Virus genome (UHGV): UHGV-0277313
Reading direction: 5' to 3' (one strand)
Length of the DNA stretch: 64,000 nucleotides
Origin: a virus
This document shows positions 11,489 through 32,281 of this stretch, in pieces. The position numbers and the translations under genes are program-made. The first letter of the stretch is position 1. Each line of letters opens with the position of its first letter. The notes below the pieces were generated by a model. The model made no database searches, was not told the DNA's origin, and worked only from the letters and a program-made list of their open reading frames with translations.

Positions 11489-13876
11489 ATGTCTGATCTA
11501 GTTTTTCAAGATTTAATTTCTAAAGATCCTAGCGTTCTTGTATTGTTCGATAAATTTGATTTTGATGATGTGAAAAAATCCAAAGCATTTACATCATCAG
11601 CAGCACGTGGGATTTTAAAGGATATTTATAGTCGCGGTTTTACGAATAATTCCGTCTGTGCGATGTATGTTAAAAATACAGCAGTGTTTGATTTCGATGG
11701 TAATTTAGAAGTATATCGTTTACCAAATGAAAAAGCAAAATCAAAAGGTCAGATTATTGTTAATGAGAAGGATAAAGCCGATTTTAAAAATAGACTTATT
11801 GCGCTATTAATGAGAAACGACTTCAAGTCTTTAATTATTTTAGGGAGAGAAGTTGCGAATGTACTGCAAGAGTTTGGATTTTATGGAGCTGGAAGTTGTT
11901 TAGATACAGCTAAAGAGATTAATTTTGTAGGCAATAAAGTTTTAACAATTGAAACTGTCAGTCCTTTAGAATATTCTTTAGGTTTGACTGAAAGAAATAA
12001 GTTCATTTCAGCAATAGATCAGATTTATTCGACACAGTATGAAGTCACATCTATTGATAATGCAAGTTACGTTGATATTGATACGTTTGCAGGGTATCTT
12101 CGTAAACTTGAAATATTATACGATAATAAAAAGATTGACTGTATGGGTTTTGACTATGAGACGAATTGTTCAGAGTGGTCAGTTCCGTGGGCGAAATTAG
12201 TTGCAGTTTCTTGTTCTGATCGTATTACAAATCACGCTTTTTCGTGTGCGTTGTATCATCCTGAAAAGATTATGCACCCTCGCAAAAAGACTTTGTTAAA
12301 GTGGTTGTTTGCACACATCTTTACAGAAACATTGACAACAAATGAAGAGTATATCAAGCTTGCAAAGAAGTTAGAGCATTTTTATAAAGATGTTTATCCT
12401 AGAATTGAGGAGTTACCGTATAAAGAAGTTCTGAATGACGATGAGTATTTTGTTCTAGAATCTTTGCCTGATTTGGTAAAAGTGTTTAAGAAAGCTGCAA
12501 AAAAGGCTTTTGAAGAAAAGACAAAAGCACATGAAGAATATAAAAAACTTATTTTTGAAGCGGTTAAACGTCTGACGTTTTTAATAAACGATACAGAGTA
12601 TCCGAAAAAGTTGCATGATTTTTATTATTTGCTAGATAAGGTTTTATCAAAAATTCCTGTTGTAGGACACAATATTAAGTTCGATATTGGTTGGTGTGCA
12701 AACATGTGTATTGGTTTGCGTAATTTACGTGTTAAAGCCGATACATTTGGTCAAGCTGTTGCTGTAATGGGGCAAAATTTAGGGACAAAATTAAATCTAG
12801 AATCGTTATCAGTTGACCTTTTAGGTGTTGAGAATAAATGGAAATCAGCATTTCATGCATCACCTCGTTTAGGTAAAGGATCAAAGTTACGTTTTGATCG
12901 TGTTCCTTTAAAGTTGTTAGGACCTTATTCTGCAGCGGATGCTATTACAACAGATTTATTGGATGAATACTTCCAAAAGAAAATGGAAGGTCAACCTATG
13001 AATCTTGTTGAAAAGGAACAAAACATTGCTATTGTCATGTTTTCTTTAGGTGAAGTTCATGGTTTTTCTATACATCCTGAAACAGAAACAAAATTGTATA
13101 AATGGGTTAACAATGGGTTAAGAGATTTACGTAATCAATTAGTTCAGCTTCCGACAGTAAAACGTTTTGTTGAAGATAGAAAGCAAGAGTTGCCTGAAAA
13201 GGAAGCAAGTTTATTTGAATTTAATACAAACACTTCTGGTGCGCAGTCACATAATGCAGCTGTTTTATTCAGGAAAGAATACTTTGGTCTAAAGTCATTA
13301 ACATCAACAGATTCAGGTTATCCTTCTGCTGATGCAGATACTTTAAAAGAGATAAAGAAACAATTGAGTGTTTCAATTAAACAATTTGAAACTGCTAAAT
13401 TAGGTGAAAAAGTTTATTGTGATAATAATGGTGAATTAATTACAAATAAAAATATTGATCGTTTTAAAGAAGCATGTACTTTTTGCGATAACTTGATTAA
13501 AACATCAGGGTTTAGTCAGTTAAACAATATGTATTATAAAGTTTCGTATGATGAGAAAAATGATCGACCTTTAGATAAATTTATTGCAGTATTTAAATTG
13601 GTAGGTGCAACAAAAACAGGACGATTGTCTTCACGTTTTCATTTAGCACCTAAAACAGGCGGCGTGCGATATGTTTATTGTTCAGCGTGGTCAAAAGATA
13701 ATATTCGTAAATATCAGTTTTCGCATGAACCAGGTGTTCGTTATGAACCTTTGTATGGCTTAATGGATGTAGTTTATGAAGACGGTACAACAGAAAAAGT
13801 GTCATACGGTGATTTATTAAATCGTGGTTATACAAAAGACGAAATAGAATCTATTTATAAAGCTAATCAAGTGTAG
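11489..13876 (+). CDS. family-A DNA polymerase, N-terminal half (3'-5' exonuclease plus N-terminal polymerase region ending at the TGRLSS motif)
   Basis: ExoI FDYETN, ExoII VGHNIKFDIGW and ExoIII YSAADAITT are present. The gene ends with KTGRLSSRF...; palm motifs A, B and C are absent. Confidence 0.8.
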   Translation: MSDLVFQDLISKDPSVLVLFDKFDFDDVKKSKAFTSSAARGILKDIYSRGFTNNSVCAMYVKNTAVFDFDGNLEVYRLPNEKAKSKGQIIVNEKDKADFKNRLIALLMRNDFKSLIILGREVANVLQEFGFYGAGSCLDTAKEINFVGNKVLTIETVSPLEYSLGLTERNKFISAIDQIYSTQYEVTSIDNASYVDIDTFAGYLRKLEILYDNKKIDCMGFDYETNCSEWSVPWAKLVAVSCSDRITNHAFSCALYHPEKIMHPRKKTLLKWLFAHIFTETLTTNEEYIKLAKKLEHFYKDVYPRIEELPYKEVLNDDEYFVLESLPDLVKVFKKAAKKAFEEKTKAHEEYKKLIFEAVKRLTFLINDTEYPKKLHDFYYLLDKVLSKIPVVGHNIKFDIGWCANMCIGLRNLRVKADTFGQAVAVMGQNLGTKLNLESLSVDLLGVENKWKSAFHASPRLGKGSKLRFDRVPLKLLGPYSAADAITTDLLDEYFQKKMEGQPMNLVEKEQNIAIVMFSLGEVHGFSIHPETETKLYKWVNNGLRDLRNQLVQLPTVKRFVEDRKQELPEKEASLFEFNTNTSGAQSHNAAVLFRKEYFGLKSLTSTDSGYPSADADTLKEIKKQLSVSIKQFETAKLGEKVYCDNNGELITNKNIDRFKEACTFCDNLIKTSGFSQLNNMYYKVSYDEKNDRPLDKFIAVFKLVGATKTGRLSSRFHLAPKTGGVRYVYCSAWSKDNIRKYQFSHEPGVRYEPLYGLMDVVYEDGTTEKVSYGDLLNRGYTKDEIESIYKANQV

Positions 13877-13882
13877 GTCGTA

Positions 13883-14959
13883 ATGAAAATTTTAACTTTT
13901 GGTGATTTACATTTTCATCATTATCATCAATTTAGTCATCCTGTTGAGTTTGGGTATACAGTTCGTTTACAGGAACAAATCAATACTTGTAAGGAAATTG
14001 CAAAAGTTGTTGTAAAAGAAAATCCAGACGTGATTTGTTGTGGCGGTGATGTATTTCATACATGGTCAACAGTAGATACAATTGTTTTAGATGCGGTTGT
14101 AGAAGGTTTGCATGAAATAGATTTAGCTTGTCAATCAATAGGGAAGAAATTTCATATTATCGTCGGAAACCATGATCAGTTGTCTGATAATAATATGTCT
14201 TCGAATTCATTGCGTCCGTTTAAATATTATCCAAATATTGTTTTACATGAACAGATGGAAGAAGATTTGGAAAATAATATTGTGTATATTCCATATGTTA
14301 TGGAAAGTTCTAGAGTTTCTTCTTTCGTATCAAATATTGAGAACAAAGAGAATAAAGTTGCTATTGCACATCTGGATTTTTTAGGTGCAAAGTATAGTGA
14401 TACAATTGTTGATCAATCAGGAAATGATACGAATGTATTCAAAACATTTAAAAAAGTAATTGGTCATCATTATCATTTACCACAAAAGTTGGGAAAGAAT
14501 TTTGTATTTCCAGGTTCACCACAAGTGTTTTCTTTTAATGAACCACGTTCAGCATTAACTAGAGGTGTTTTATTATATGATACAGAAACAGATAAAGTAA
14601 AAAGAATATCTTTAAATGTTCCTGATTGGGTTAAGATCGATGATATGATGCCTATTGGTGAAATTATTAAAGAGCTTAAATCGAATAATTATGTGAAATT
14701 ATCTTTAGCAAGTGATTATTCATTAAGTGAAGAAGGTTTATCTTTAGAAGATATAAAAAGTAAATTTTTAGGTGTTGAAGTAGAGTTTGATGTTGAGAGA
14801 ATAAAAATATCATCTAGACGACGTGATTCAGAAGAAATCACTTTAGAATCAGAAGAAGATGTGTTAAAAGAGTTTATAAAGAGTCAAGATTGTAGTGAAG
14901 AGTTAAAGAAAAAATATCAACAAGTTGGTTTAAGTATTTTAGGAAAGGTGAGACGATAA
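13883..14959 (+). CDS. Mre11/SbcD-like nuclease (calcineurin-like phosphoesterase)
   Basis: Motifs GDLHF, GGDVFH and VGNHDQ. Confidence 0.85.
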   Translation: MKILTFGDLHFHHYHQFSHPVEFGYTVRLQEQINTCKEIAKVVVKENPDVICCGGDVFHTWSTVDTIVLDAVVEGLHEIDLACQSIGKKFHIIVGNHDQLSDNNMSSNSLRPFKYYPNIVLHEQMEEDLENNIVYIPYVMESSRVSSFVSNIENKENKVAIAHLDFLGAKYSDTIVDQSGNDTNVFKTFKKVIGHHYHLPQKLGKNFVFPGSPQVFSFNEPRSALTRGVLLYDTETDKVKRISLNVPDWVKIDDMMPIGEIIKELKSNNYVKLSLASDYSLSEEGLSLEDIKSKFLGVEVEFDVERIKISSRRRDSEEITLESEEDVLKEFIKSQDCSEELKKKYQQVGLSILGKVRR

Positions 14960-15279
14960 TGTTTGGTAGGATCAAAAGATATTTTATAAAAAGAATGTAC
15001 AAAAGTTGTTCCGAAGAGATAATTTTCATTAGGAATTTTTATAGAAAAGGTATCCTATTGGATCCGAGTAGTTTTTCAGATTTACCGTCAGAAAGACGTT
15101 TAAAGATTTATGAAGAAGAGATTTTAGTCCACATTCCTTATGATGCATATAAAATTTATAAGAGTATGTTTGGTGTAGGTTTTCATATTCATTTAATGTT
15201 TGATGCTTTTGGCTATAGCGATTTTAAAAATGAAGTAGTTGAAGATTTATTTATGGATAAATGTCGTGATGCAAAATGA
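14959..15279 (+). CDS. hypothetical protein
   Basis: ORF whose start is coupled to the sbcD stop (TAATG). Confidence 0.4.
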   Translation: MFGRIKRYFIKRMYKSCSEEIIFIRNFYRKGILLDPSSFSDLPSERRLKIYEEEILVHIPYDAYKIYKSMFGVGFHIHLMFDAFGYSDFKNEVVEDLFMDKCRDAK

Positions 15280-16276
15280 AAATAAAAGGGCTTTAGTTGT
15301 TGACTTGTCATATCAAGTACATCGTTATTTATCTGTACCTCAAATGAGTGAATTGAGGAATAAAGATAAAGTAAAAGTTGGTGGTGTATTTGGTGTTTTA
15401 AAAGCTTTAAACAATGCGTTATCAAACGATTGTTTTAGTAAAGTTATTTGTTGCATGGATAGTTACCCTGCATATAGAAAACAATTGTTTCCTTCATATA
15501 AATCATCGAGAAGAAACAATCCTGATAGTCCAGAGTACGCTTCTTATATAGCAACAGATAAATGGGGTTGGTCACAAAAAAGTACGCAAGAATTTACATT
15601 TAGGACGTTAAAGTTTCTTTTACCTAAATTAAAAATCAAGACAATTATTCAGGAAAATGTCGAAGGGGATGATTTAGTTTATCATACTTGCAAACATTTA
15701 ACTGAACAAGGTTGGTCTTGTACAGCAATGTCTGATGATAAAGATTATTTGCAATTGGTTAATTTAATCCCTGGTATTAAAATTTTACGTGCTATGCATG
15801 GTGATGTTGTTACATCTTTAAACTTTTTCGATAAATGTAAAGTTTATCCAGAGTGGTTTATTTTTTATAAAGCGTTGTTAGGAGACCCTTCAGATGAAAT
15901 CCCAAATGTTGTTAAAGGGTTTGGAGAGGCCTCGATCATTAAGTTCGTGAACAAAGCGCATGAATTAGGGATAGATCCAAATGATTTAAACATGTATGAC
16001 AAATTGTTTAGTCTTGCGGAGAATTGGGAAGATTCAAGATCTAAAAGAAGCGTTCAGAAATTTACAAAAGATTGTTTGCATCTTTTAGAAAAAAATTTAA
16101 ATTTAATGGATTTTCGTAGATGCCCGTATGGGTCAAATAAACATGAAGAGTTGCAGTCATTATTAAATGAAAGCGTTGTCGCTGATGAAAGTGGTGCAAT
16201 TGAACTTTTAGAAAAGCTTGAAATGAAGACAATGATGGCTTTACCGTATTCACCAATAATTAAACGCTTGACTTAA
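15269..16276 (+). CDS. 5'-3' exonuclease/flap endonuclease (T5 D15/RNase H-like)
   Basis: PIN-like VEGDDLV and H3TH LLGDPSDEIPNVVKGFGE motifs. Confidence 0.8.
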   Translation: MQNENKRALVVDLSYQVHRYLSVPQMSELRNKDKVKVGGVFGVLKALNNALSNDCFSKVICCMDSYPAYRKQLFPSYKSSRRNNPDSPEYASYIATDKWGWSQKSTQEFTFRTLKFLLPKLKIKTIIQENVEGDDLVYHTCKHLTEQGWSCTAMSDDKDYLQLVNLIPGIKILRAMHGDVVTSLNFFDKCKVYPEWFIFYKALLGDPSDEIPNVVKGFGEASIIKFVNKAHELGIDPNDLNMYDKLFSLAENWEDSRSKRSVQKFTKDCLHLLEKNLNLMDFRRCPYGSNKHEELQSLLNESVVADESGAIELLEKLEMKTMMALPYSPIIKRLT

Positions 16277-16315
16277 AGTTCTTTTTATTTTATAGTAATG
16301 TTGTTTTGGTGAATT

Positions 16316-16462
16316 ATGGCTGAAGAAATTAAAAATAAGCAAGTTGAAAATGAAGACAATGACGACAATGACGACAATGAAAACAAAGAAATTGATGAAA
16401 TTGTCAGTGAGATTGCAGAAAAAGTAGATGGTTTCTTTTACAACAAGGAACCTGAAAAATGA
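16316..16462 (+). CDS. small acidic protein (48 aa)
   Basis: Unlisted short ORF MAEEIKNKQVENEDNDDNDDNENKEIDEIVSEIAEKVDGFFYNKEPEK with an NDD repeat. Confidence 0.3.
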   Translation: MAEEIKNKQVENEDNDDNDDNENKEIDEIVSEIAEKVDGFFYNKEPEK

Positions 16463-16812
16463 AACATGAAGAATCAAAAATACAAAGACAGGTTGTCAAT
16501 TATTTAAGATTAGAACTTCGTCAGTGTGGAGGATTGGTTTTTGCTGTTCCAAATGGTGGAAAGAGAAGTAAGATAGAGGCACGTATTCAAGTTGCAGAAG
16601 GTACGTTGCACGGGGTTTCTGATTTGATTTTGTTGTTGCCTAATTCAAGGACGGTATTCGTAGAAATGAAAACTGACAAGGGAAAACAGAGTGAATATCA
16701 GAAACAATTTGAAGATTCTGTAACAAACTTGGGTTTTGAATATGTCATTTGGCGTTCAATTGACGATTCAATAAATTGGGTAAAAGAAGCTAAACAAAAT
16801 GGGTGGTTTTAA
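16459..16812 (+). CDS. VRR-NUC domain nuclease
   Basis: AVPNGG..R, D-LILLLP and VFVEMK form a PD-(D/E)XK core typical of VRR-NUC. Confidence 0.7.
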   Translation: MKHEESKIQRQVVNYLRLELRQCGGLVFAVPNGGKRSKIEARIQVAEGTLHGVSDLILLLPNSRTVFVEMKTDKGKQSEYQKQFEDSVTNLGFEYVIWRSIDDSINWVKEAKQNGWF

Positions 16813-17027
16813 TGGTAACTAAAGGTGAAGTTTATCGTCATTTTAAAGGCGGAGTTTATGGTGTTGTAGAAATTGCAACGGATCATAATACAAAGGAGTT
16901 GTGTGTAGTTTATCGTAATTTAGAAACTAGTGAATGTTATGTTCGTCCGATGTGTGATTTCGAATCTAAAGCAATTGGTGGTGTTCAACGTTTTACATTG
17001 ATCGACAAGGTTGACATTAAAAACTAA
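16803..17027 (+). CDS. DUF1653-like small protein
   Basis: YRHFKGGVYGV signature. Confidence 0.45.
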   Translation: MVLMVTKGEVYRHFKGGVYGVVEIATDHNTKELCVVYRNLETSECYVRPMCDFESKAIGGVQRFTLIDKVDIKN

Positions 17028-17068
17028 AAATTTTTTTGTTCTTATTGTATAAAAAAAGGAAAAGCACG

Positions 17069-17407
17069 ATGACAGAGTATGTAAAAAGTTTAGTTGAAAA
17101 CCTTTATAAAGAGTCAGATTTTTATGAACAGGATTTAGAAATTTATCCATATGTAGAAAAATTGGCAACTTTTTTAGGTTTAGAAGATGCAGCTGATCTT
17201 TACGCATTCTATAATCGTGCTTTATTTTACGATTCTTTAGATGATGTAAAAAGACATGAATCATCAATGGACGATTGGGAATTCGAAATTTATAAACGAT
17301 TTTTTGAGAAGTTTGGAAAACTTGATGAAGATTTTACAGAAGAAGACTTCAAAAAGTTTAATTCAAATCAAAAAGAATATGATGAGTTTCACAGTACGTT
17401 AAATTAA
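17069..17407 (+). CDS. hypothetical protein
   Basis: ORF with RBS AAAGGAAAAG. Confidence 0.45.
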   Translation: MTEYVKSLVENLYKESDFYEQDLEIYPYVEKLATFLGLEDAADLYAFYNRALFYDSLDDVKRHESSMDDWEFEIYKRFFEKFGKLDEDFTEEDFKKFNSNQKEYDEFHSTLN

Positions 17408-17434: not shown

Positions 17435-19330
17435 ATGTTGCAAATTGTTTCTGTAAAAGGCGAGAATTTTCGTTCCTTTAAAAAGTTTGACTTCCAAATA
17501 AAAGAAGGTTTGTGGGTAGTAAAAGGCGCAAATAAAGATGATAGTGCGTCTGATTCAAACGGAAGTGGTAAGTCAACATTATTTTGTGATAGCATTATTT
17601 GGTGTTTAACTGGCAATACTGTTAATGGTCTTGACAGTGAAGATGATGTTGTTAATTTGAAAGCAAAAAAAGATTGTTTTGTTGAAGTAACAATTAATAA
17701 TGATAATCATGTTGTTAAAGTTATTCGAACAAGAAAACATACACAGTTTAAAAATAATCTTTTATTAGAAGTAGATGGTCAGTCGCTTTCTGCGCATCGT
17801 ATTAAAGACACACAAGACCGTGTGAATCAAATCATTAAGATTAGTCCTGCATTGTTAAAGTCAACGATTATTATGGCAGGTGATATCTCTAATAGATTTT
17901 CTGAATTAACGCCAAAAGATCGTATTGCATTATTGGAATCAGTACGTGATTATAAAGTTTGGTCTGATTTCCGCGAAGAATCAAAGATTTCATTGAATCA
18001 ATATATTTCACAAATTGATGATTTGAAGGCATCTAATTCAAATAGCGAGGGCCAGCTTACAGCTATTTCAGGTTTCATTGAAGGATTGTCAAAAGATTAT
18101 CTAGAGGAAAAAGAAAAAACTTTTTCTGAAGATGAAATTCATGTTCTCGAAAATGAATTAAACGAATTAAATTCTTTAAATGATAATAAGGAAGAAATAA
18201 ATCGTTTATCAGTTGAGTTAAAAGAAAAGAACGAAGAAGTTGCAATTGTTACAAACGAACATAATAAAGCAGTTGGTGCGTTAAATAGTTTGTATGCAGA
18301 AAGCTCAAATTTGAAGTATGAAATACAATCGGCTCAAAATAGTATTAAACAGTATAGTACTTTATTGACAACTGATAATGTTTGTCCGACATGTGGCCAA
18401 AAGGTGATTATGTCGGAAGAAAAAAAGTTGGAATTATTGCGGTCATTATCAACAACAAAAAAATCTTTTTTGGAAGCTGTAGAAAAAGAAAAGTTGGTTG
18501 CTGAAAAGATATCTTCGACTTCTATAAGCGAACCTGACGGTTTAGCAAATTTAAGAAATGCGATCACAAATATTTCTTTAAAAATTCAGGAATTGTCTTT
18601 TAAAGATAATGCTGTGAAAGATAAAATTGTTTCGTTAACTCGTAACATCAAAGCATTAAAAGATAATATTGCATCACATAGTTTACGTTTAGAAAGTTTG
18701 ATTAATCAGATTTCTCAATATAAACAGCAAGCATTGTCTATTAAAACGATTATTGAGGAAAATAATAAATTATTAATTGAACTTGATCAAGAACGTAATG
18801 CATATCAATTTTTTTATGATAGTTTAGGGCCTAGAGGTAATTTACGACCATACCTGTTGCGTAAAGATGTTGCATATCTTAATAATGTATTGCAGTACTA
18901 CGCAGCTAGATTATATTCAGGATGTTCAATTAAATTAACTATTCCAACTATTGATTCAAACAAAATAGACATTATTTTTGAGAATACAAATGGTTTAGTT
19001 AAATCTGTTTCAATGTTATCAAAAGGTGAACGTAAGCGTTTAGATTTGTGTATTCAATTTGCTATTTATGATTTAGTACGCTCAACAGCAATGTTTGATA
19101 CTAATATCCTAATACTTGATGAGATATTTGAAAGTCTTGATGTAGCAGGAATTAATCACGTTGTGACAATGTTGGAAGAAAGATCAGAGGTTATTCCTAG
19201 CATTTATGTCATCACACATAATCCAAATGCATATGGGTTGATTCCAAGACAAATTCTTGTTAGTAAAAATAATGATATTTCAAAAGTAACTTTTAAAAGT
19301 GGTGAGTCTGATGGAAAAACAGAAGCTTAA
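17435..19330 (+). CDS. Rad50/SbcC-like ATPase
   Basis: Walker A SNGSGKST, zinc-hook CPTCGQ, signature LSKGERKR, Walker B LILDE and H-loop ITHN. Confidence 0.85.
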   Translation: MLQIVSVKGENFRSFKKFDFQIKEGLWVVKGANKDDSASDSNGSGKSTLFCDSIIWCLTGNTVNGLDSEDDVVNLKAKKDCFVEVTINNDNHVVKVIRTRKHTQFKNNLLLEVDGQSLSAHRIKDTQDRVNQIIKISPALLKSTIIMAGDISNRFSELTPKDRIALLESVRDYKVWSDFREESKISLNQYISQIDDLKASNSNSEGQLTAISGFIEGLSKDYLEEKEKTFSEDEIHVLENELNELNSLNDNKEEINRLSVELKEKNEEVAIVTNEHNKAVGALNSLYAESSNLKYEIQSAQNSIKQYSTLLTTDNVCPTCGQKVIMSEEKKLELLRSLSTTKKSFLEAVEKEKLVAEKISSTSISEPDGLANLRNAITNISLKIQELSFKDNAVKDKIVSLTRNIKALKDNIASHSLRLESLINQISQYKQQALSIKTIIEENNKLLIELDQERNAYQFFYDSLGPRGNLRPYLLRKDVAYLNNVLQYYAARLYSGCSIKLTIPTIDSNKIDIIFENTNGLVKSVSMLSKGERKRLDLCIQFAIYDLVRSTAMFDTNILILDEIFESLDVAGINHVVTMLEERSEVIPSIYVITHNPNAYGLIPRQILVSKNNDISKVTFKSGESDGKTEA

Positions 19331-19565
19331 AGATGCTTTAATTCGTTTGTCAGTGTTAAAAGATGTTGACATTTCTGATAAATTTGATAAGATAGCAAAT
19401 GCAAAAATAATCTTGAATGTTGGGTTTAGATGTCCATGTTGTCCTAATGATCGAGAGATGGCTTGCATTAGTAGAAAGTGTTACAATGATATTCAGAAAA
19501 ATGGTGTATGTCATTGTGGATTGTTTAAAAAAAAAAGAAAGAAGAAAGTAAGGTTTAAAAGTTAA
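19299..19565 (+). CDS. small Cys-rich (zinc-binding) protein
   Basis: CPCCPN...C..CHCG. Confidence 0.4.
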   Translation: MVSLMEKQKLKDALIRLSVLKDVDISDKFDKIANAKIILNVGFRCPCCPNDREMACISRKCYNDIQKNGVCHCGLFKKKRKKKVRFKS

Positions 19566-20069
19566 ATGAATAAAGACGATATGTTTGATAAACTGTTTGA
19601 AAATAAAGGTTTTTCTGTTTATCATGATGGTGAAAAATTAGCACGTTATGTTTGTGATGATGGTAGTATTGATTATGTTGATGAAGATACAGATGATACT
19701 ATGATCACAATTTCTAATGGCAAAATTTGTTGTACAGAATGTGATTGCAAAATCGGTTATAGTAATTGTGAAGTTGTTAATGATCATTCTATTAATCTAA
19801 TTTGTCCTGATTGTCTTTATGAATATAAAGTCGTATTTTCGAACGTTGACAAGATTCCAATGTCAAAAGATATCAAAGCTTTACTTGATGGAAGTATTTA
19901 TGAAGCGTTGTTAGGGAATCAGATTATTCATGTTAAATATTCTGACGGAAAGTTTTTGTGTATTGAGGAAAATGACAAACCTGTAAAACCCGAAATGTTA
20001 AATAAAGAAGTCTTTTTATCAAATGCACAGTTGGCTGATTTGAGAAAAGAAGAGAAAAGTTGTGAATAA
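19566..20069 (+). CDS. Cys-rich hypothetical protein
   Basis: Multiple CxxC pairs. Confidence 0.5.
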   Translation: MNKDDMFDKLFENKGFSVYHDGEKLARYVCDDGSIDYVDEDTDDTMITISNGKICCTECDCKIGYSNCEVVNDHSINLICPDCLYEYKVVFSNVDKIPMSKDIKALLDGSIYEALLGNQIIHVKYSDGKFLCIEENDKPVKPEMLNKEVFLSNAQLADLRKEEKSCE

Positions 20070-20172
20070 TGGCTTCAAAATCTTTAGTGAATAAGGTGTT
20101 TGGTTTGACGGTTGAAATCATTTTTTAATGAATTCAAAGAATATTTAGTGATAGAATAAGAGTGGGAAAGTT

Positions 20173-20679
20173 ATGATTGTAATTGGTTACCAAGGAATTG
20201 GGAAATCAACATTGGTAAAAGACAGCAATTCTTATATCGATTTTGAAAGCTCCAATTTCAAAATTAATGGGAAACGCCCGGATGGGTGGGAACAGATGTA
20301 TTGCGAAGCGGCGTTGGATTTAAGTCGTCAGGGGCACGTTGTTTTTACGGCATCCCATAAATGCATACGGGATTATTTGAAAGATCGCCAAGGTAGCGAA
20401 GTTGTGCTGATTGTTGCACCGTCCGTAGACTTGAAAGACTTGTGGTTGGAAAAACTTAGAAATCGTTACAAAGAAACTGGTCTTGAAAAAGATAAGTTGG
20501 CTTTGCTCAACGCAGAAGATTGTTTTGGCGAAAACATAAAAGAAATGCAGAATTATGCAAGTGTTTTCCCGTTTTATGAAATCACTGATATGAGCTACAA
20601 ATTGCGTTTTCTGTTTGATAACTTTTTAAAAGACGAAGAAGTCCTTAAAACTTTTGGATTTAAACGTTTACATGTTTAA
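20173..20679 (+). CDS. P-loop kinase-like protein (nucleotide or polynucleotide kinase-like)
   Basis: N-terminal GYQGIGKST Walker A. Locally elevated GC. Confidence 0.55.
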   Translation: MIVIGYQGIGKSTLVKDSNSYIDFESSNFKINGKRPDGWEQMYCEAALDLSRQGHVVFTASHKCIRDYLKDRQGSEVVLIVAPSVDLKDLWLEKLRNRYKETGLEKDKLALLNAEDCFGENIKEMQNYASVFPFYEITDMSYKLRFLFDNFLKDEEVLKTFGFKRLHV

Positions 20680-20789
20680 TCATGATTAATACCGAAGAAA
20701 ATGCAAGTGTAATTATTAATACTTAAAACTCAAAAACAAAATTTCGATTGAGAAAATTTTTAAGTTTCTTTAACAGTTAGGTAAGTAAA

Positions 20790-22784
20790 ATGAAGCAAGT
20801 AATAAAACGCGATGGAAAAGAAGTTAAATTTAATTTGAAAAAGATTGTATCGGCTATTCGTAGGGCTGGAGAGTCTTCTGGTGAATTTGGTTATGACGAA
20901 GCTTTAGATTTAACAAATTCAGTAATTCAAATGTTTGATAATAAAGAAAAAGCAACTGTTGAAGAGATTCAAGATGCTGTTGAAAAAGTGTTGAATGAAA
21001 ATAATTACACAAAGACAGCACGCGCTTTTATTGTGTATCGTGAAAAACATAATGATATGAGAAAAGATAATAATGTAATGATTGATGCTGTTCAGTCAAT
21101 TGATGATTATCTTGATCGTTCAGATTGGCGTGTAAACGCTAACGCAAATCAGGGGTATTCTTTAGGTGGTATGATTCTAAATACTTCTGGTAAAGTAACA
21201 GCAAATTATTGGTTGAGCCATGTGTACCCTAAAGAAGCTGGTGAAGCACATCGTAATGGTGATATACAGATTCACGATTTAGATATGTTAGCAAATTATT
21301 GTACTGGATGGTCATTGCGTGCATTGCTTCAGGAAGGCTTTAACGGTGTTAAAGGTAAAGTTGAAAGTAAACCACCAAAACATTTAGCTTCAGCTTTAGG
21401 ACAAATGGTGAATTTTTGGGGTTGTTTACAGAATGAGAATGCAGGTGCACAGGCATTTAGTAGTTTCGACACATATCTTGCACCTTATGTTCGTAATGAT
21501 AAATTGACATACAAACAGGTTTATGATGCTATTCAGGAATTTGTATTTAATGTGAATGTTCCTTCAAGATGGGGAACACAGACGCCTTTTACGAACATTA
21601 CATTAGATTGGACATGTCCGGAAGATTTGAAGGATTCACAACCTATAATTGCTGGTGAAGAGATGGATTATACATATTCTGAACTTCAACCAGAAATGGA
21701 CATGATTAATAAAGCCTTTATTGAAGTCATGATTAAAGGTGATGCACATGGACGTTTATTTACATTTCCTATTCCGACATATAATATTACACCAGACTTC
21801 CCGTGGGAAAGCGAAAATACAAAGTTGTTGTTCGAAATGACGGCAAAGTATGGGTTGCCGTATTTTCAGAATTTCTTGAATTCAGATTTGAAAGTTGGTG
21901 ATGTTAGAAGTATGTGCTGTCGTCTTCAACTTGACTTGCGTGAAATTAAAAAACGCGGTGGCGGTCTATTTGGTTCAGGGGAACAGACAGGTTCAATTGG
22001 TGTTATAACAATTAACTGTGCGCGTTTAGGGTATCTGTTTAAGAATGATATAACAGGTTTATATAAACGTTTAGATGAATTGATGAATATTGCTAGAAAT
22101 GCATTAGAACAAAAAAGAAAGTCATTAAATAAATGGATGGAGCAAGGTTTGTATCCTTATTCTAAACGTTATTTAGGTGGTTACAACACTTTGTTTTCAA
22201 CGATAGGAATTAATGGTGTAAACGAAATGATTCGTAACTTTACAAACGATGAACATGATATCACAGATGACTATGGACAGAAGTTTGCAATGTCTTTAAT
22301 GGATCATATTAATGAGGTGTTAAAACAATTTCAGGTTGAAACTGGTAATTTATACAACTTGGAGGCTACGCCAGGAGAAGGAACTACTTTTAGGTTTGCG
22401 AAAGAAGATAAAAAACGCTATCCTGAAATTATTCAAGCAGGAAAACCTGAAGCACCTTATTATACAAACTCAACACAGATACCTGTTGGGTATACAAATG
22501 ATCCATTTACTGCATTAAATCTGCAGGAAGGTTTGCAGAGACGCTATAGTGGCGGCACAGTTGTACACCTTTACATGGGAGAAGCAATGTCATCATCAGA
22601 TTCTTGCAAGACTTTAGTGAAGCGTGTTCTGGAGAATTATCACATTCCATATTTAACAATTACACCTACGTTCTCGATTTGTCCTAAGCATGGGTATATC
22701 TCAGGTGAACATAAATATTGTCCTATTTGTGATGAAGAGTTAACTTCACCAAAGCAAGAGCAATGTAAAGCTTGTAAGGGTTAA
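20790..22784 (+). CDS. nrdD: anaerobic ribonucleoside-triphosphate reductase
   Basis: N-terminal ATP cone and a C-terminal Cys cluster CPKHGYISGEHKYCPIC with a glycyl-radical-like GY. Confidence 0.9.
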   Translation: MKQVIKRDGKEVKFNLKKIVSAIRRAGESSGEFGYDEALDLTNSVIQMFDNKEKATVEEIQDAVEKVLNENNYTKTARAFIVYREKHNDMRKDNNVMIDAVQSIDDYLDRSDWRVNANANQGYSLGGMILNTSGKVTANYWLSHVYPKEAGEAHRNGDIQIHDLDMLANYCTGWSLRALLQEGFNGVKGKVESKPPKHLASALGQMVNFWGCLQNENAGAQAFSSFDTYLAPYVRNDKLTYKQVYDAIQEFVFNVNVPSRWGTQTPFTNITLDWTCPEDLKDSQPIIAGEEMDYTYSELQPEMDMINKAFIEVMIKGDAHGRLFTFPIPTYNITPDFPWESENTKLLFEMTAKYGLPYFQNFLNSDLKVGDVRSMCCRLQLDLREIKKRGGGLFGSGEQTGSIGVITINCARLGYLFKNDITGLYKRLDELMNIARNALEQKRKSLNKWMEQGLYPYSKRYLGGYNTLFSTIGINGVNEMIRNFTNDEHDITDDYGQKFAMSLMDHINEVLKQFQVETGNLYNLEATPGEGTTFRFAKEDKKRYPEIIQAGKPEAPYYTNSTQIPVGYTNDPFTALNLQEGLQRRYSGGTVVHLYMGEAMSSSDSCKTLVKRVLENYHIPYLTITPTFSICPKHGYISGEHKYCPICDEELTSPKQEQCKACKG

Positions 22785-23936: not shown

Positions 23937-23937
23937 C

Positions 23938-26036: not shown

Positions 26037-26271
26037 AAATTTTTTAAGAATAAGTCTTGATTTCTAATTCAATATAAGTTAATCTAACTAAAGACAAAAG
26101 TTTGATAAGGTTTTAACTTTGAAGACAATTAGCTTACAATATGCCTGTTCAGAAGACGACCGAATCTTTATCAAAGACGAAATTCGGAAGTCATCTAAAT
26201 CTATTGTAAATTTATATAAAATTTATAATAGATTTAGATAAGTGAGTTATTTTAAATAATTGGAGGTTTTT

Positions 26272-26859: not shown

Positions 26860-26936
26860 AAAGATTCAAACAAGATTTAACACGTTCTTGTTTATAACTG
26901 TTTTAAAACACTAATTTCGTCATTAAAGAGAATAAC

Positions 26937-27539
26937 ATGGCGCGCAACTCCATTAAATATGTTGTTGATATTGATTTAAATAAAAATTATCTTAAAAAAG
27001 CACGTTTTGAAAATCTTGCTGAAGCCCCTGCAGATCCAGCAGAGGGTCAAGTATACTATAATACAACAGATAAATGTTTTTATTTTTTCCATGAAAGCAG
27101 TTGGGAAAAGTTTGTTAAAACTTCTGAATTATTAACACTATTAAACGAGATGCTTCTTCCTGGTGACGGTGTTGATATTAAATTATACCCAGCTGAAAAT
27201 CCGACAAAATTACAAGTTTCTGTAAAAAATAAAAGCGCACTGTATGTAAAAGAATTTGGCGTTTCTGATTGGACTAATGGTGTCATGACTATTACTAAAG
27301 CAGTGCATCAATGCGGTGCAAAACCTGTACTTCAGGAAGTTATGGAATACGTTACTGTTGGTGATAAAACCATATCTCGTGATGTTGAAGTTGGTTTTGA
27401 ATATAATGCTGATGGTGATGTAACACTATACTCATCAGAAGGGTTTGTAGGGTATCTTCAGATAGGTTCACCTTATTCTGACCCAGTTCCTGTTGAAAGC
27501 AGTTTGAATGATATTCTATATGGCCCTGTTGTAGAGTAA
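26937..27539 (+). CDS. hypothetical protein
   Basis: ORF. Confidence 0.5.
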   Translation: MARNSIKYVVDIDLNKNYLKKARFENLAEAPADPAEGQVYYNTTDKCFYFFHESSWEKFVKTSELLTLLNEMLLPGDGVDIKLYPAENPTKLQVSVKNKSALYVKEFGVSDWTNGVMTITKAVHQCGAKPVLQEVMEYVTVGDKTISRDVEVGFEYNADGDVTLYSSEGFVGYLQIGSPYSDPVPVESSLNDILYGPVVE

Positions 27540-27555
27540 ATAGATGACAATAAAA

Positions 27556-27597
27556 ATAACGGGTTTCTTAATTGAAACCCGTTATTTTATTTTTTAT
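27556..27597. terminator. bidirectional rho-independent terminator
   Basis: aacgggtttc-ttaatt-gaaacccgtt flanked by T-runs on both strands. Confidence 0.65.
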
Positions 27598-27938
27598 TGT
27601 TTAATTTTAATCGTTAAAGAATATTTACCATTATCTTTTTTGATATTTGTTAAAGTGGCTGTCAGATATTCTTTTGACGTGTGTGAATTATTGAAGCATT
27701 GCAATTCAATCGTTTTAAAGTCAATAAATTTGCTTGCTATTTGCTGTATTTTACTTGAATGTGCTCTTGTGATAGTAATTTCCTCAAGTTGCTGTAGCCC
27801 TTTAAAAAGGGGTTTAGGAAGTACTATTTTAAAAGATGCAATTTCGTTTTTAATCACTGCATGGGCTTTCTTCTTTAAGAATTTAGAAATTAAATTTTTC
27901 AAGAATTCAACAATTTTCTTAAACATGGCAAACCTCAA
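27594..27938 (-). CDS. small basic hypothetical protein
   Basis: RBS GAGG 8 nt upstream, with terminators on both sides. Preferred over the overlapping + strand ORF. Confidence 0.45.
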   Translation of the reverse strand: MRFAMFKKIVEFLKNLISKFLKKKAHAVIKNEIASFKIVLPKPLFKGLQQLEEITITRAHSSKIQQIASKFIDFKTIELQCFNNSHTSKEYLTATLTNIKKDNGKYSLTIKIKQ

Positions 27939-27954
27939 ATTTATTATTTGATAT

Positions 27955-28030
27955 AAAAAATAGAACCCGTGTCAATAACAAATCACTATAATTAATTCGT
28001 TATCAACACGGGTTTCTTTTGTTTTTTATT
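27955..28030. terminator. long-stem bidirectional terminator between convergent gene blocks
   Basis: gaacccgtgtcaataac ... gttatcaacacgggtttc followed by ttttgtttttt. There is a T-run on the opposite strand as well. Confidence 0.6.
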
Positions 28031-28146
28031 CAGCAGCAATTGCTGAAACTTCCGTATGTTTGAAAGCAATATTTTCTTTGAAGTATTTGCGTTCTTCAAA
28101 TTCTGATTTCTTTCCAACATTGAAGTTTTCGTATGGACGGAAATAC

Positions 28147-28872
28147 TTAATCGACTATTACTTCAGATTTATCTGTTGTTTCGTTTAGTCTGTCAAGGTA
28201 GCTTCTAGCAATACCATAATTTCTTTGTAATAGGTATCGAGGTTTGCCGTCGTACATAAAGTTAATAAGTTTCAGGCATTCAGATTGATTAAAACGTAAT
28301 CTAAACAGTTTACCGTTTGTAACAATCTTTTTTGTTTCATTTATTACTTTATGTCTTACTAAAATACTTTTTACATTTTTTAGTACAGGCATGTAACCAA
28401 TAATTTCTGCAAACAGATGGTTGTTATGTAAACCGTCATAATAAAAAGAACCGTCGGCATCAAAAAGACCTCTGATAAAATCTTTTGAGATTTCATCTTG
28501 TAACAGGTCTATATGAATATCTCCACGGTCTTTTTTAAGTTTTGTTAATTCATAGCGTTTTAAAGCTTTATGCAACTTCCAGCTTCGAATTTCAAAACCA
28601 CATGATGGGTATTTATTTTTAGCAAGGAAACGTTTAATCGGTTTATCACTACCAATAAAATTTCTAAAATTGGTTAATAAATTTATATCCTTTTCAGCAC
28701 AACATATTCTGATTTTATTTTCTGTTGTACAGTTTCCTTCACCGTATAAATAACCAATCCAATATGCAGATTCATGATTTATACAATCAAACACTTGTTC
28801 ATTAAGTGTATATTTTCGTTTGTTCATTTTTACATCCTTTCGGATAAGTCTTCCGACTTGAGCTTTCCTCAT
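28147..28872 (-). CDS. LAGLIDADG homing endonuclease (free-standing)
   Basis: Two LAGLIDADG-type motifs: YWIGYLYGEG and IRGLFDADGSF. Confidence 0.8.
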   Translation of the reverse strand: MRKAQVGRLIRKDVKMNKRKYTLNEQVFDCINHESAYWIGYLYGEGNCTTENKIRICCAEKDINLLTNFRNFIGSDKPIKRFLAKNKYPSCGFEIRSWKLHKALKRYELTKLKKDRGDIHIDLLQDEISKDFIRGLFDADGSFYYDGLHNNHLFAEIIGYMPVLKNVKSILVRHKVINETKKIVTNGKLFRLRFNQSECLKLINFMYDGKPRYLLQRNYGIARSYLDRLNETTDKSEVIVD

Positions 28873-28935
28873 CGTTACTTTAATGTTTAATTAAAGCTTT
28901 CGATTATTATTAGAAACAATTTTATTTGGGCTATT

Positions 28936-29097
28936 TCACTTATGCGCACCCATGACGCGGGTCCATACTTCTGTTAACTGATGTTTATTGCCATCTTTCA
29001 TAGTGACAATTTGTTCAGTTTCATCGTAGTCTTCAATTTCATTGAAATCTTTGACTCCCTTTAGGCGCAACAACGCCATCTTTTTTTCATTTAACAT
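28936..29097 (-). CDS. small ORF (53 aa)
   Basis: Unlisted ORF MLNEKKMALLRLKGVKDFNEIEDYDETEQIVTMKDGNKHQLTEVWTRVMGAHK with SD GGAG 8 nt upstream. Confidence 0.3.
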   Translation of the reverse strand: MLNEKKMALLRLKGVKDFNEIEDYDETEQIVTMKDGNKHQLTEVWTRVMGAHK

Positions 29098-29449
29098 TTT
29101 AATTCTCCATTAAGTTAAGTGGAAATAAAAATCCGAAATGGAGTTCCAGATTCTTATTTGTGTGTTTTCCTATTTACTGTGTGTAAAAGCACATTCTTTA
29201 AGAAACATACTGTTTCCTAAAGGTAGATTGAAGAACTAAAGCTTTTATCTATCATACTGATAATAGCTTTAAAAATTCTTCTTTATTTTCAATAAGTTAA
29301 GGTTGTTGACAAACATTTTTATTTAGTTTAAAACGTTGAAAAACAACAAACATTTCAAGAACAAAAAGTTAATTTTAGAAGAAATGTTCCTAACCTATTG
29401 AAATCGTTAAGTTGCAAAAGATGTTTTTGTCTAATGCAATTTAATTGTG

Positions 29450-29644
29450 TTAAAATGGCAATTCTGGCTCATCACTTGTATCAACAAACACCTGTTTCTT
29501 TATCAAGTTTGATTTACCTTTAAACTCAAGCTTATTTGATTTCAGAAAAGAAAACCAAATTGAATAAAATTCAGATTCTGTTAAATTATCAGGTAACTCG
29601 ATTGAACCTGATACAGTGAAAGATTTAATCGTCTTCGTACTCAA
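29450..29644 (-). CDS. small acidic protein, paralog of the next gene
   Basis: Shares a SGSIE(L/T)P motif with 29625..29828. Confidence 0.45.
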   Translation of the reverse strand: MSTKTIKSFTVSGSIELPDNLTESEFYSIWFSFLKSNKLEFKGKSNLIKKQVFVDTSDEPELPF

Positions 29645-29828
29645 AATCTATCTCTTCTTCCATATCTTCTAGTTCACGATCTGTATCCTCTGTTGGTTCA
29701 ACGGTTCCTGCAAAAGTCCATCCGTTTTCTTCCATCAATTCAATAATAGCATCAATTACAGTATCAGCATCCTCTGTTCTTGGAGTTTCAATTGAACCGC
29801 TAATATCAAACCAAATACGTTTACTCAT
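29625..29828 (-). CDS. small acidic protein
   Basis: ISGSIETP motif and an acidic tail. Confidence 0.45.
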   Translation of the reverse strand: MSKRIWFDISGSIETPRTEDADTVIDAIIELMEENGWTFAGTVEPTEDTDRELEDMEEEIDFEYEDD

Positions 29829-29905
29829 TAATTAAATCCTTTTATTAAGTAAAATTATGATAGCAAAAGACCGCATAAATGTCAAGTAAAATAGAAAAAT
29901 TTTAT

Positions 29906-32281
29906 CTATTCTTCACGTTTACCATAAAAACCGTTGCCGACAAAATACTTGCTTTTGAAATCCATATTTGGGCAAGGATCTTCAAATTCAAGCTTCAGTG
30001 AAATAAGTTGTGTCGGGACTTCAATAGGTAACTCTTCACGTTCTTCTGGAGGGATAGGGTCACCTTCTTTCATCTCAAGTATTTTGTAGTCGTATGCTTC
30101 ATCAAGTTCACGTTTTAAATAATCCCAATTGCAGTTGCCTCCCTTGATATTTAAAATGAATTTACCATCCTTCTCTTCAAAAGATTTAATATCCATTTCA
30201 CGTCCCCATGATTGACCTAAACCAAAATCAATGAACATTTTGTTTCCGTTCATCCAATCATAAATAACATTTGGTACCGTACCTGCATGAAATTGACAAA
30301 TCTTAAAAACTGGAATTAATTCACCTGGGTATATGTCAAGATATGTTGAATCATGAACACCACCAATCATTACTGATTGTAAATCGTGCATCAACATCTC
30401 TTCTGCAATATGTGTACCTGCAATCCATGCCATACGGCTAGCGGATGAATTGTGTACAAAAACACCAGCTTCTAATGCGAAATTGTGTGTATTTTCATTG
30501 TTTTCAACTTCAATATCATATACTGAAATTTTGTTTGGTAGTTTAATTACTTCAACAGATGTAACTTTATGGTTGTTGAATAATTCTGCTACTAAACGTT
30601 CATAATTTTCTTTTGAAAAGTGCGGAACACTTGAAGCTCTAGCTCCTTCATTAATATAAGACAATCTGTATTCTTCAAAAATATTTTCGAAAGAAGAATC
30701 TAGTAATATATTTTTACCAAGTTTTTCAATAATTTTTAAAGAAAGTTTTTTGAACTTATAAAAAGTTGTATTCTTTCCACATTTTCTGATATTATTTTTC
30801 ATATGCTGTATCTTTTCTAGATCATTACCTTTCCAAATTTTATTTATTGTTTTTCTGGCAGATTCAGACAATTGTTCTTTAGACATACAGAATGCATTTC
30901 CATATGTTTCAATGCGTTTTTTTACCAAAGCTTTAACTGCTTCTCTTTGGTTAAAATCCCAATCTTTATAAAGTTCTTTTCTTTTTTTATTTTTTTCAGC
31001 CATTAATTTAGATTGTTTTTCAGAATGTTCTTGTGTTAAAAAATGTTTCCAAATATTGTTTTCACGTTTGCCTTCTCGTATTTCACGTACACGTTTTTGA
31101 GTGTCAATACTACGTTGTTTTGAAGTATATTTCAAACCCATTTGACGTAAATATTCGTGAACAGATACACCTGTCAGGTCAGCATGTCTTTTAATAGTAG
31201 ACATTACAAGAGATGAATGATATTTTATATGTTCTGCCTTATCCATAATAAGTAAATTATCAGGGTTGTTGTTTAATTTGTTGAAATCTTTGTGATGTAC
31301 TGCTTCATTTTTTTCAATAGTACGATCATAATATTTACTTACTATACGATGTACAGAGGCCCAAGGTTTTGTAGTTAAATCATTTCTTTTAACATATTTA
31401 TACCCTAACTTGTCATATTTTGTATAACAAGGCATTAAGCTTTCATTATTTTTTAAATCGATAGCATGTTTATATGTTCCATCCCTTAACATAAACTGGT
31501 GTTCAGGTGTGCATGTAATAATTTCGCCAGAATCTAATGTAACTTTACAAATTGTGTCAGTTTCTCCAGATTTAAAAGCGTTAATAATTTTGCCAGGTAT
31601 AATTTTACCATCATTACAACAAGATAAAACATACTTATTTTCAAAATTATTCACAAGGTTTTGAATTTCAACAACACTGCCATCTAATAAAGGTATTTTA
31701 GTATCACCAACAAAACATTGGATCCCACTATTCTGGCTTGCATTCATAGCATGATTCAACAACTTCCTGTTGCTTTTAGTGTCAGGCAACATTGCATCTG
31801 GTAACGGTCTAGTACAACCAAATACGTCAACAATATATCCATGCTCACGGGCGAACTTGTGTTGATATTCAACGTATGTTTTAATACCAGGGTATGCCCC
31901 CATCATTTTATCAATAGTTTCTTGAGCTTCTTCGACAGTGCATCCCCACTCTTTTGAAAAGTTGTAGGCTGATTTTCCATAGAGTAGACCAAACATTGTT
32001 GACTTCGCCTTTGAACGCAACCCAGAGTGGTGTTCTTTAATTTCTTTATCACTCATGTTTTTTAGTTCAGGAAAAATATTTCTGGCCGTATTACAATGCA
32101 GATCAGCACCTGACAGTAGTACATCTCGAAGTGTTGGATCACAACTAATAGCTGAAAAAATTCGAATTTCCAAAGTACTGTAGTCGTACGAAACTATTAT
32201 ACCACCACCGTTGTGTCTTGTCAAGCTTTTTATTTTCTTTTTTGCAAAATTTTTATTTTTTATTTCCATTTTTCTAGCCAA
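29906..32281 (-). CDS. family-A DNA polymerase, C-terminal half (motifs A, B, C) interrupted by an intein
   Basis: Motif A DYSTLEIRIF, motif B KSTMFGLLYG and motif C VHDS are present. An insertion from Cys189 to ...VHN is followed by SSAS. Confidence 0.8.
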   Translation of the reverse strand: MARKMEIKNKNFAKKKIKSLTRHNGGGIIVSYDYSTLEIRIFSAISCDPTLRDVLLSGADLHCNTARNIFPELKNMSDKEIKEHHSGLRSKAKSTMFGLLYGKSAYNFSKEWGCTVEEAQETIDKMMGAYPGIKTYVEYQHKFAREHGYIVDVFGCTRPLPDAMLPDTKSNRKLLNHAMNASQNSGIQCFVGDTKIPLLDGSVVEIQNLVNNFENKYVLSCCNDGKIIPGKIINAFKSGETDTICKVTLDSGEIITCTPEHQFMLRDGTYKHAIDLKNNESLMPCYTKYDKLGYKYVKRNDLTTKPWASVHRIVSKYYDRTIEKNEAVHHKDFNKLNNNPDNLLIMDKAEHIKYHSSLVMSTIKRHADLTGVSVHEYLRQMGLKYTSKQRSIDTQKRVREIREGKRENNIWKHFLTQEHSEKQSKLMAEKNKKRKELYKDWDFNQREAVKALVKKRIETYGNAFCMSKEQLSESARKTINKIWKGNDLEKIQHMKNNIRKCGKNTTFYKFKKLSLKIIEKLGKNILLDSSFENIFEEYRLSYINEGARASSVPHFSKENYERLVAELFNNHKVTSVEVIKLPNKISVYDIEVENNENTHNFALEAGVFVHNSSASRMAWIAGTHIAEEMLMHDLQSVMIGGVHDSTYLDIYPGELIPVFKICQFHAGTVPNVIYDWMNGNKMFIDFGLGQSWGREMDIKSFEEKDGKFILNIKGGNCNWDYLKRELDEAYDYKILEMKEGDPIPPEEREELPIEVPTQLISLKLEFEDPCPNMDFKSKYFVGNGFYGKREE
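30449..31717 (-). mobile_element. intein with HNH homing-endonuclease domain inside the PolA C-half
   Basis: The insertion starts CFVGDTKIPLLDGS and ends FVHN followed by S. It contains the HNH motif VHHKDFNKLNNNPDNLLIMDKAEHIKYH. Host motif B precedes the insertion and motif C follows it. Confidence 0.65.

Follow-up and report, generated by a model that had tools for sequence, protein, structure and literature searches.

The two PolA genes

The window analysed here is a 64-kb stretch of UHGV-0277313, the genome of a large uncultured phage, the whole genome being roughly 175 to 313 kb, and it carries a family-A DNA polymerase (PolA) divided over two genes. The N-half gene lies at 11489..13876 on the plus strand, and the C-half gene lies 16 kb away on the minus strand at 29906..32269. 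An initial annotation, made from the letters and their open reading frames (ORFs), had placed both ORFs correctly and had read them as parts of one polymerase. Homologous proteins are referred to by P-numbers (P0015, P0016, and so on) and related loci or contigs by L-numbers (L001, L005, and so on). Most of these relatives come from protein searches, with scans of IMG/VR and of Joint Genome Institute (JGI) metagenomes contributing few. An annotated reference is absent, because the tblastn search against GenBank phages yielded a single distant match with 25% identity.

The N-half gene encodes 795 amino acids (aa), as seen from its ORF translation and from Pfam and PHROG searches. The domains follow each other in the order of a domain resembling uracil-DNA glycosylases (UDG), a 3'-5' exonuclease with a helical insert, a thumb, the TGR motif, and a C-terminal tail. 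Pfam recognizes only the DNA_pol_A_exo1 domain, and the gene is assigned to PHROG 17, “DNA polymerase”.

The exonuclease core (12149..12943, +) is supported by its motifs, by the N-half alignment A1, and by a profile match to Klenow. It includes ExoI FDYETN (aa 221-226; 12149-12166, +), ExoII GHNIKFDIG (aa 393-401; 12665-12691, +), and ExoIII YSAADA (aa 480-485; 12926-12943, +). The residues D222, E224, N395, D399, Y480, and D484 are invariant in alignment A1, and the acidic and tyrosine residues of the exonuclease show no change among 13 homologs. The N-half as a single sequence has no match in a PDB sequence search, and as a profile it only matches the Klenow exonuclease domain weakly (E value, 2.6e-4); a sequence match to the DNA polymerase of phage phiLo (PDB ID 9qhs) is undetectable. 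Between ExoI and ExoII lies the helical insert of about 125 aa, with five helices predicted by AlphaFold2 (AF2) at aa 264-388, and the thumb is predicted as an extended helical region at aa 530-709. It is followed by TGRLSS (aa 710-715; 13616..13633, +), which is invariant in alignments A1 and A5 and is the last canonical PolA motif of the N-half. The ORF then ends at a stop codon without motif A, so that the content ascribed to this half (ExoI, ExoII, ExoIII, and TGRLSS, and no motif A) is as described before.

The N-terminal region (11489..12058, +, about aa 1-190) is predicted to adopt a UDG fold. Its AF2 model has a predicted local distance difference test (pLDDT) score of 83, and the Foldseek search matches it to UdgX and family-4 UDGs (E value, 3.6e-8; template modeling [TM] score, about 0.62) and also to phiLo 9qhs. 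The Pfam UDG family is detected weakly, in 2 of 12 N-half homologs (E value, 0.002). By eye, the position of motif A of family-4 UDGs is occupied by FDKFD (LEKPD in the clade with 47% identity) and not by GExPG.

Beyond its final homologous palm strand, the N-half ends in a conserved tail of 64 residues (aa 732-795; 13682..13873, +) with the motif SAW...PG..Y.P.YG..D..YEDGT.E...L..RGY, which persists as far as L005, whose N-half is 30% identical. AF2 predicts a beta-hairpin at aa 758-772 (13760-13807), followed by two short helices at aa 773-792, with pLDDT scores of about 70-86. The full-length relative P0015 has no counterpart of this tail, and the fused relatives L018 and P0030 carry the hairpin in frame.

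The C-half gene is contained in an ORF that extends over 29906-32281 (-), with an ATG at 32269. This ATG is most likely the true start, judging from the sequence of the intein-free homolog P0016, which begins with MEIKNK. The C-half thus begins about 28 aa ahead of motif A, which agrees with the earlier description of a start just before motif A, although the start at 32281 proposed there probably does not hold. All three polymerase motifs reported for the minus-strand ORF are present: motif A DYSTLEIR (32162-32185, -), motif B RSKAKSTMFGLLYG (31976-32017, -), and motif C GGVHDS (30347-30364, -). The Pfam DNA_pol_A domain matches with an E value of 1.2e-31 over profile positions 137-300 of 381. 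The PDB search with P0016 gives the Bst, Taq, and Klenow polymerases, with the alignment beginning at about aa 20-24 of P0016. The best match is the SP15-like DNA polymerase of phiLo, 9qhs (phmmer E value, 2.2e-24), where the alignment reaches residue 1107 of 1142 and thereby extends into the C-terminal domain of 9qhs.

The polymerase content of the C-half, correctly recognized in the initial annotation, is interrupted by an HNH intein of 423 aa (30449..31717, -; residues 189-611) between motifs B and C. The intein reads CFVGDT...VFVHN with a serine at the +1 position and matches the Pfam families Intein_splicing (E value, 5.6e-18) and HNH_3 (E value, 3.8e-7). Its boundaries are fixed by P0016, which has 364 aa and is 99% identical to the spliced exteins of the window. 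The precursor of 787 aa is accordingly predicted to be spliced to a mature protein of 364 aa. The N-extein (31718..32269, -) consists of a head of about 20 aa (MEIKNKNFAKKKIKSLTRHN), a GGG motif, motif A, and the fingers with motif B, and runs to ...NSGIQ. The C-extein (29909..30448, -) starts with SSASR..., contains motif C and a C-terminal domain of about 110 aa, and ends with KSKYFVGNG. This C-terminal extension is kept in all C-halves. Mini-inteins occupy the same site in P0017, P0018, P0021, P0023, and P0035.

A third intein site of the PolA family lies within motif B, KAK[SA]|C[MI]FGLLYG, where P0019 and P0028 (L009-L011 10001-11515) contain a mini-intein of 136 aa.

Directly upstream of the C-half lies a free-standing homing-endonuclease-like gene (32260..33387, -) with the Pfam domain DUF7487 (E value, 2.4e-14) and matches to PHROG 3339 and 12131, “homing endonuclease” (3.2e-14). 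Its stop codon overlaps the ATG of the C-half (ATGGAAATAA). Lak megaphage genomes have 5-9 copies of DUF7487 genes each. The gene is found beside the C-half in L004 and L009-L011 and is absent there in L012, L005, and L021, which is why it may have arrived after the split. This gene, the HNH intein, the UDG-like domain, and the conserved tail had been overlooked in the initial annotation.

Conservation of the split

Neither ORF is a complete polymerase. When the window is searched by tblastn with P0015, a full-length relative, the N-half is covered by aa 254-627 of this protein and the C-half by its residues from 624 onward, so that the two halves abut without overlap and jointly make up one PolA without duplication. 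An overlap or a duplication of the halves is thereby ruled out, and the same search finds no third PolA in the 64-kb window. The break falls between TGRLSS and motif A, as had been claimed, at what we take, from the alignments and textbook Klenow numbering, to be around Pol I residues 690-700.

The arrangement is found in many relatives. The N-half homologs form 14 cluster representatives with 46-99% identity, all of 785-803 aa and on contigs of up to 220 kb, and stand-alone C-half homologs have 361-376 aa, with identities down to 38%, in addition to intein-bearing versions. All catalytic residues of the exonuclease and the polymerase are invariant among the homologs aligned. The gene order of dUTPase, a small ORF, N-half, Mre11-like gene, and FEN is kept in relatives. 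Both junction flanks recur in the independent assemblies L001-L004, L009-L012, L017, and L023-L025, which settles the concern about misassembly that the initial annotation had raised. The same split, which it had proposed to look for in related phages, is also present in an uncultivated virus genome of 313 kb, an IMG/VR contig of 313,762 bp. Here, the N-half lies at about 287.2-289.6 kb (+) and the C-half (-) spans the contig ends, so the halves are about 24 kb apart and convergent, as they are in the window with 16 kb and opposite strands.

Between the window and L001, the N-half has a ratio of nonsynonymous to synonymous substitution rates (dN/dS) of 0.067, and its tail has one of 0.077. When the window is compared with L017, the C-half exteins reach 0.11 and the C-terminal domain 0.037. 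Since lengths, flanks, and layout recur and dN/dS is low, misassembly, pseudogenisation, and chance are excluded as the origin of the split, and the comparison of the sequences indicates that the split is old.

Two of the contigs mentioned, L024 and L025 (CALBJM010000301.1 and CALAFU010000258.1), belong to metagenome-assembled genome bins labelled Erysipelotrichaceae and Melainabacteria. The labels conflict with each other, are probably due to binning contamination, and are unfit for host assignment.

Fused, overlapping, adjacent, and dispersed relatives

Relatives of the window's PolA show four arrangements of the two parts. In P0050, P0053, and P0054, the polymerase is a single chain of 926-975 aa without the hairpin, reading TGRLSS...SAW...PG..Y.P...GGG...DYSQLE. 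L018 and P0030, both from short contigs, are single chains with the hairpin kept, where L018 reads ...YNPPYGLVEVEYEDGSKETITYKDYLNNGKKSKSIKPIMGGGLFLSFDFSSLEV in one frame and P0030 has the hairpin and the C-half in frame. In L021, the two genes overlap by 8 nucleotides (nt) in different frames, and the junction AAAGGAGGTCAAAATGAATAA supplies a Shine-Dalgarno (SD) sequence, an ATG, and a stop codon; the C-half has its own AAAGGAGGT and ATG for the start of translation. L018 is 88% identical to the C-half of L021, and the two loci differ by an indel of 13 nt. L005 and L006 have adjacent genes with an AT-rich spacer of 64 nt that contains AAGGAG and an ATG. Dispersed genes are found in the clade of the window, in a clade with 47-60% identity (L002, L009-L012), and in L058, which has an N-half of 732 aa and no C-half within 4 kb.

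The signals at the junctions indicate separate translation of the two genes in L005 and L021. Both fused and split forms occur within groups of close relatives, suggesting that the parts are interchangeable with the single chain and that the single chain is equivalent to the two-gene form. The comparison of the fused, overlapping, adjacent, and dispersed forms also places the break inside a lineage-specific insertion, in the loop that leads from the palm strand after the TGR motif to the strand of motif A. The series may be read in either direction, as both fission and re-fusion fit it.

A related PolA lineage has an apparent natural split intein at TGRLS|S. The C-terminal region of about 117 aa of P0051 is an intein N-part (CLLGETLI...RCTPDHRF...), and P0030 aa 1-37 (L022 35-145) is an intein C-part, MKIKSIKRHTGELKVYDISV...SFVHN|S, preceded by an in-frame stop codon and GGAG. 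The two parts are unmatched as a pair because they come from different contigs.

Predicted structure and proposed assembly

The AF2 model of the concatenated halves has a pLDDT score of 73.7 and a predicted TM (pTM) score of 0.62. The Foldseek search with this model gives the whole Bst and Klenow large fragments (E value, about 1e-20; target-normalised TM score, 0.62-0.67). Disorder is confined to residues around the junction, and the tail is ordered.

We consider it likely that the two genes are expressed independently and together provide a functional replicative PolA, whose C-half is cis-spliced and whose subunits are joined non-covalently. The assembly in trans, already envisaged in the initial annotation, is something we infer from the conservation, the purifying selection, and the absence of splicing or rearrangement signals. 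Both genes would be transcribed and translated on their own. The N-subunit would contribute the UDG fold, the proofreading exonuclease, the thumb, and the primer-contacting TGR motif. The C-half precursor would first excise its 423-aa HNH intein by protein cis-splicing, and the C-subunit would then contribute the catalytic carboxylate motifs A and C, the fingers with motif B, and the C-terminal domain. Both polypeptides would subsequently associate into one PolA fold with a composite active site, to which the N-subunit would bring the TGR motif and the thumb and the C-subunit the motifs A, B, and C. The 64-aa tail of the N-subunit, and perhaps the short head of the C-half, would probably shape or stabilise the interface.

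Several points weigh against this interpretation. The AF2 model is one of a covalent fusion and is based on a shallow alignment (21 sequences; pTM score, 0.62). The head of the C-half evolves fast, with a dN/dS of 0.38, and is therefore a weak candidate for a dedicated interface element. We infer the association of the subunits, the role of the tail, and the enzyme activity alike, and another polymerase may be encoded in the genome of about 175-313 kb outside the 64-kb window.

It is possible, but in our view doubtful, that the tail and the head stem from a mobile element, be it a homing endonuclease gene or a degenerate split intein, and now form a dedicated module for heterodimerisation. If this were true, living lineages would preserve all the steps of an intact gene, its invasion by the mobile element, its fracture, adjacent subunit genes, and their uncoupling, with occasional re-fusion through a deletion of 13 nt, and a sister lineage would handle its nearby break at TGRLS|S by a genuine split intein.

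The two proteins might also no longer cooperate, the N-half acting as an exonuclease or DNA-binding factor and the C-half being a separate or decaying fragment, while another polymerase replicates the genome. The analysis covers 64 kb of the genome, the two genes belong to different transcription units, and phages with stand-alone exonucleases exist, all of which would fit such a separation. However, every catalytic and DNA-binding motif of PolA is retained in the halves under strong purifying selection. This also holds for the thumb and the TGR motif, parts of the N-half that would be functionless without a palm. The alternation of fused and split forms in close relatives and the lack of another PolA in the window also speak for cooperation, and we regard the loss of it as improbable.

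The alternative routes by which the halves could be joined (a split intein, an intron, or an inversion) were each tested, and each failed. Protein trans-splicing would demand that the N-half tail and the C-half head together form a split intein ligating the halves. The tail starts near a cysteine, C731, which is invariant within the window clade, the head of the window's C-half terminates in HN, and the related lineage has its apparent split intein (P0051 N-part, P0030/L022 C-part) about 17 aa upstream at TGRLS|S. Visual comparison furthermore suggests a likeness of the hairpin to intein block B and of the head to the beginning of an intein C-part. Against this, the +1 residue is glycine in every homolog and not cysteine, serine, or threonine; HN varies to HR, SR, VK, or IM among homologs; and the cysteine is replaced by asparagine, alanine, valine, or threonine in other lineages. 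The head has merely about 20 aa and lacks blocks F and G, no N-half has a Pfam Hint or Intein match, and L018 and P0030 carry the element in frame as an ordinary insertion. A hidden Markov model (HMM) built from 8 inteins of the family scores the tail and head together at no more than 2.4 bits, whereas shuffled sequences reach up to 8.3 bits. Trans-splicing of the halves is thus highly improbable, and a split-intein remnant was rejected as a demonstrated homology, as its HMM signal does not rise above the shuffled controls.

We give hardly any credence to an assembly artefact or a programmed DNA inversion that would leave the halves contiguous in the real or active genome. Inverting the segment between the junctions would indeed bring the C-half directly behind the N-half on the same strand. 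However, the N-half has its own stop codon, 6 nt ahead of the next conserved gene, the C-half has its own ATG, and identical flanks occur in many independent assemblies from different samples. No inverted repeats are found at the junctions, where the scan of 13.0-33.5 kb only yielded chance AT-rich matches of 70-80%, and even the relatives with adjacent genes are still separated by a stop codon plus an SD sequence and ATG.

A repair at the RNA level, which would connect the coding regions through a programmed frameshift or a trans-splicing intron of group I or group II, has next to no probability. Mobile introns and inteins are abundant in such phages (PMC12880540), and the L021 ORFs do overlap in different frames. 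However, Rfam at the gathering threshold gives no match in the whole window, neither junction has non-coding space, the genes lie on opposite strands 16 kb apart, and the L021 overlap has a strong SD sequence and ATG without a slippery site.

Relation to known polymerases and fractured genes

The sequences place the enzyme near the SP15-like UDG-fused family-A phage polymerases, of which YerA41 and phiLo are known (PDB ID 9qhs; Missoury et al., bioRxiv 10.1101/2025.03.26.645540), because its C-terminal extension aligns with the corresponding domain of phiLo 9qhs. Both share the order of UDG fold, exonuclease with helical insert, thumb, palm, fingers, and an extra C-terminal domain, and the exteins add up to 1159 aa here compared to 1175 aa in phiLo. 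The subfamily has a helical Insert 1 in the exonuclease domain and an Insert 2 in the thumb, to which the helices predicted here between ExoI and ExoII and in the extended thumb may correspond. The C-terminal domain after motif C has about 80 aa in the subfamily and about 110 aa here, where it is aligned to 9qhs. In contrast, each known member is one polypeptide chain in which the UDG catalytic motifs are conserved. The window has two genes and, by eye, FDKFD at the position of UDG motif A, and its palm has an extra hairpin insertion.

A precedent for the proposed assembly is the family-B polymerase of phage phiKZ (gp82 and gp50; PMC13648687). Its genes lie far apart, the split falls in a palm insertion, and cryo-electron microscopy has resolved the two proteins as a 1:1 complex. 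A jumbo phage, distant genes, and a break in a lineage-specific palm insertion are common to both. In phiKZ, the stretches on either side of the break fold with one another and the stable 1:1 complex is established experimentally; for the pair in the window, such a complex is a proposal. The polymerases also differ in family and in the position of motif A, which is on the N-subunit in phiKZ and, together with motif C, on the C-subunit here.

Within family A, the exonuclease/polymerase split of T7-like cyanophages of the S-SBP1 type was reported to be the first split known for PolAs (Czernecki et al. 2023, PMC10201439). It likewise involves two genes whose products are presumed to associate, but there the genes are neighbours and the break is at the domain boundary, whereas the window has its break within the polymerase domain and its two genes far apart on opposite strands. 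Other split polymerases are known from T4-like gp43, Methanothermobacter PolB, Nanoarchaeum PolB, and cyanobacterial DnaE, the latter two with split inteins (PMC2677866). The Pol III alpha subunit is split in jumbo phages (PMC7824862), and adjacent “split DNA polymerase” genes have been described in marine phages (bioRxiv 10.1101/325100; PMC10580990).

The arrangement upstream of the C-half recalls fractured genes. In phage Aeh1, NrdA is split by the homing endonuclease gene mobE, and the tails are needed for activity (PMC3045599). Fractured genes show an overlap with the endonuclease gene, and their uncoupling into separate loci is step IV of the model of Dassa et al. 2009 (PMC2677866). As in Aeh1 nrdA/mobE and T4-like gp43, a homing-endonuclease-like gene is directly upstream of the C-part with a stop/ATG overlap, and both polypeptides bear unique tails at the break. 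Unlike in these cases, no endonuclease gene lies between the halves in the window, there is no split intein at the break, and the type of tail hairpin seen in the window also occurs in fused relatives.

We found no account in the literature of a PolA cut within the polymerase domain with its halves dispersed on opposite strands, nor of a series of fused, overlapping, adjacent, and dispersed PolA forms.

Family-A polymerases are textbook single-chain enzymes and major biotechnology reagents. The cut in the palm described here leaves one subunit with the primer-binding TGR motif and the thumb, while the other receives the fingers and both motifs that hold the catalytic aspartates, and strong selection persists although the halves are now 16-24 kb apart on opposite strands. 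The sole natural PolA split that we found described lies at the boundary of exonuclease and polymerase, in adjacent genes (PMC10201439). The window may thus offer a natural permissive split site in PolA, together with a candidate interface element that is relevant to engineered split polymerases, and its relatives provide a rare extant series (fused, overlapping, adjacent, and dispersed) for the fracture and uncoupling of an essential gene. Annotation pipelines will label such phages as “polymerase-less” or “truncated”, and polymerase phylogenies will miss or split them.

Other features of the window

The UDG-fused PolA adjoins a GDP-mannose-dehydratase/epimerase-like gene, a GT8 glycosyltransferase, and a dUTPase (6298-8081 and 10602-11117, +). 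By analogy to what was proposed for SP15-like phages, this set may serve the sugar hypermodification of thymidine. The ORF at 3460-4410 (NTP_transf_2) was considered as the companion X-family polymerase of SP15-like phages, which is unsupported, as it has no PDB sequence match.

A TnpB/Cas12f-like ORF (5124-6311, +) with matches to Cas12f1-like_TNB (E value, 4.7e-19) and OrfB_IS605 lies between an ORF of 201 aa and the epimerase gene. It looks recently inserted, because the flanking genes are directly adjacent in the 88%-related L001. The anaerobic ribonucleotide reductase gene nrdD (20790-22784, +) is intact in the window and is broken by Intein_splicing and LAGLIDADG inserts in L001, a contig of 220 kb (18817-22385). 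The “Jug” gut jumbo phages (PMC12880540) are similar to this phage in GC content and in the fragmentation of nrdD, but no accession matched. A free-standing LAGLIDADG-like ORF (28147-28872, -) is located at the convergent strand switch, just upstream of which two near-perfect, terminator-like hairpins are found (26193-26239 and 27544-27597).

In the region 48200-64000, the GC content increases near 50 kb, from about 30% to roughly 40%. Between 48.2 and 53.3 kb, there are no ORFs of at least 200 aa, even with any single stop codon reassigned. The region has neither tRNAs nor Rfam matches. Stop-codon recoding was rejected as the cause of the ORF fragmentation at 50-58 kb, where no single reassignment restores long ORFs. 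A MoxR-like AAA ATPase is encoded at 60727-62025, followed by an HNH endonuclease according to PHROG at 62089-63363. The minus-strand region 38540-42137 consists of seven tandem, diverged paralogous ORFs of 159-172 aa, which match no family and share 23-39% pairwise identity.

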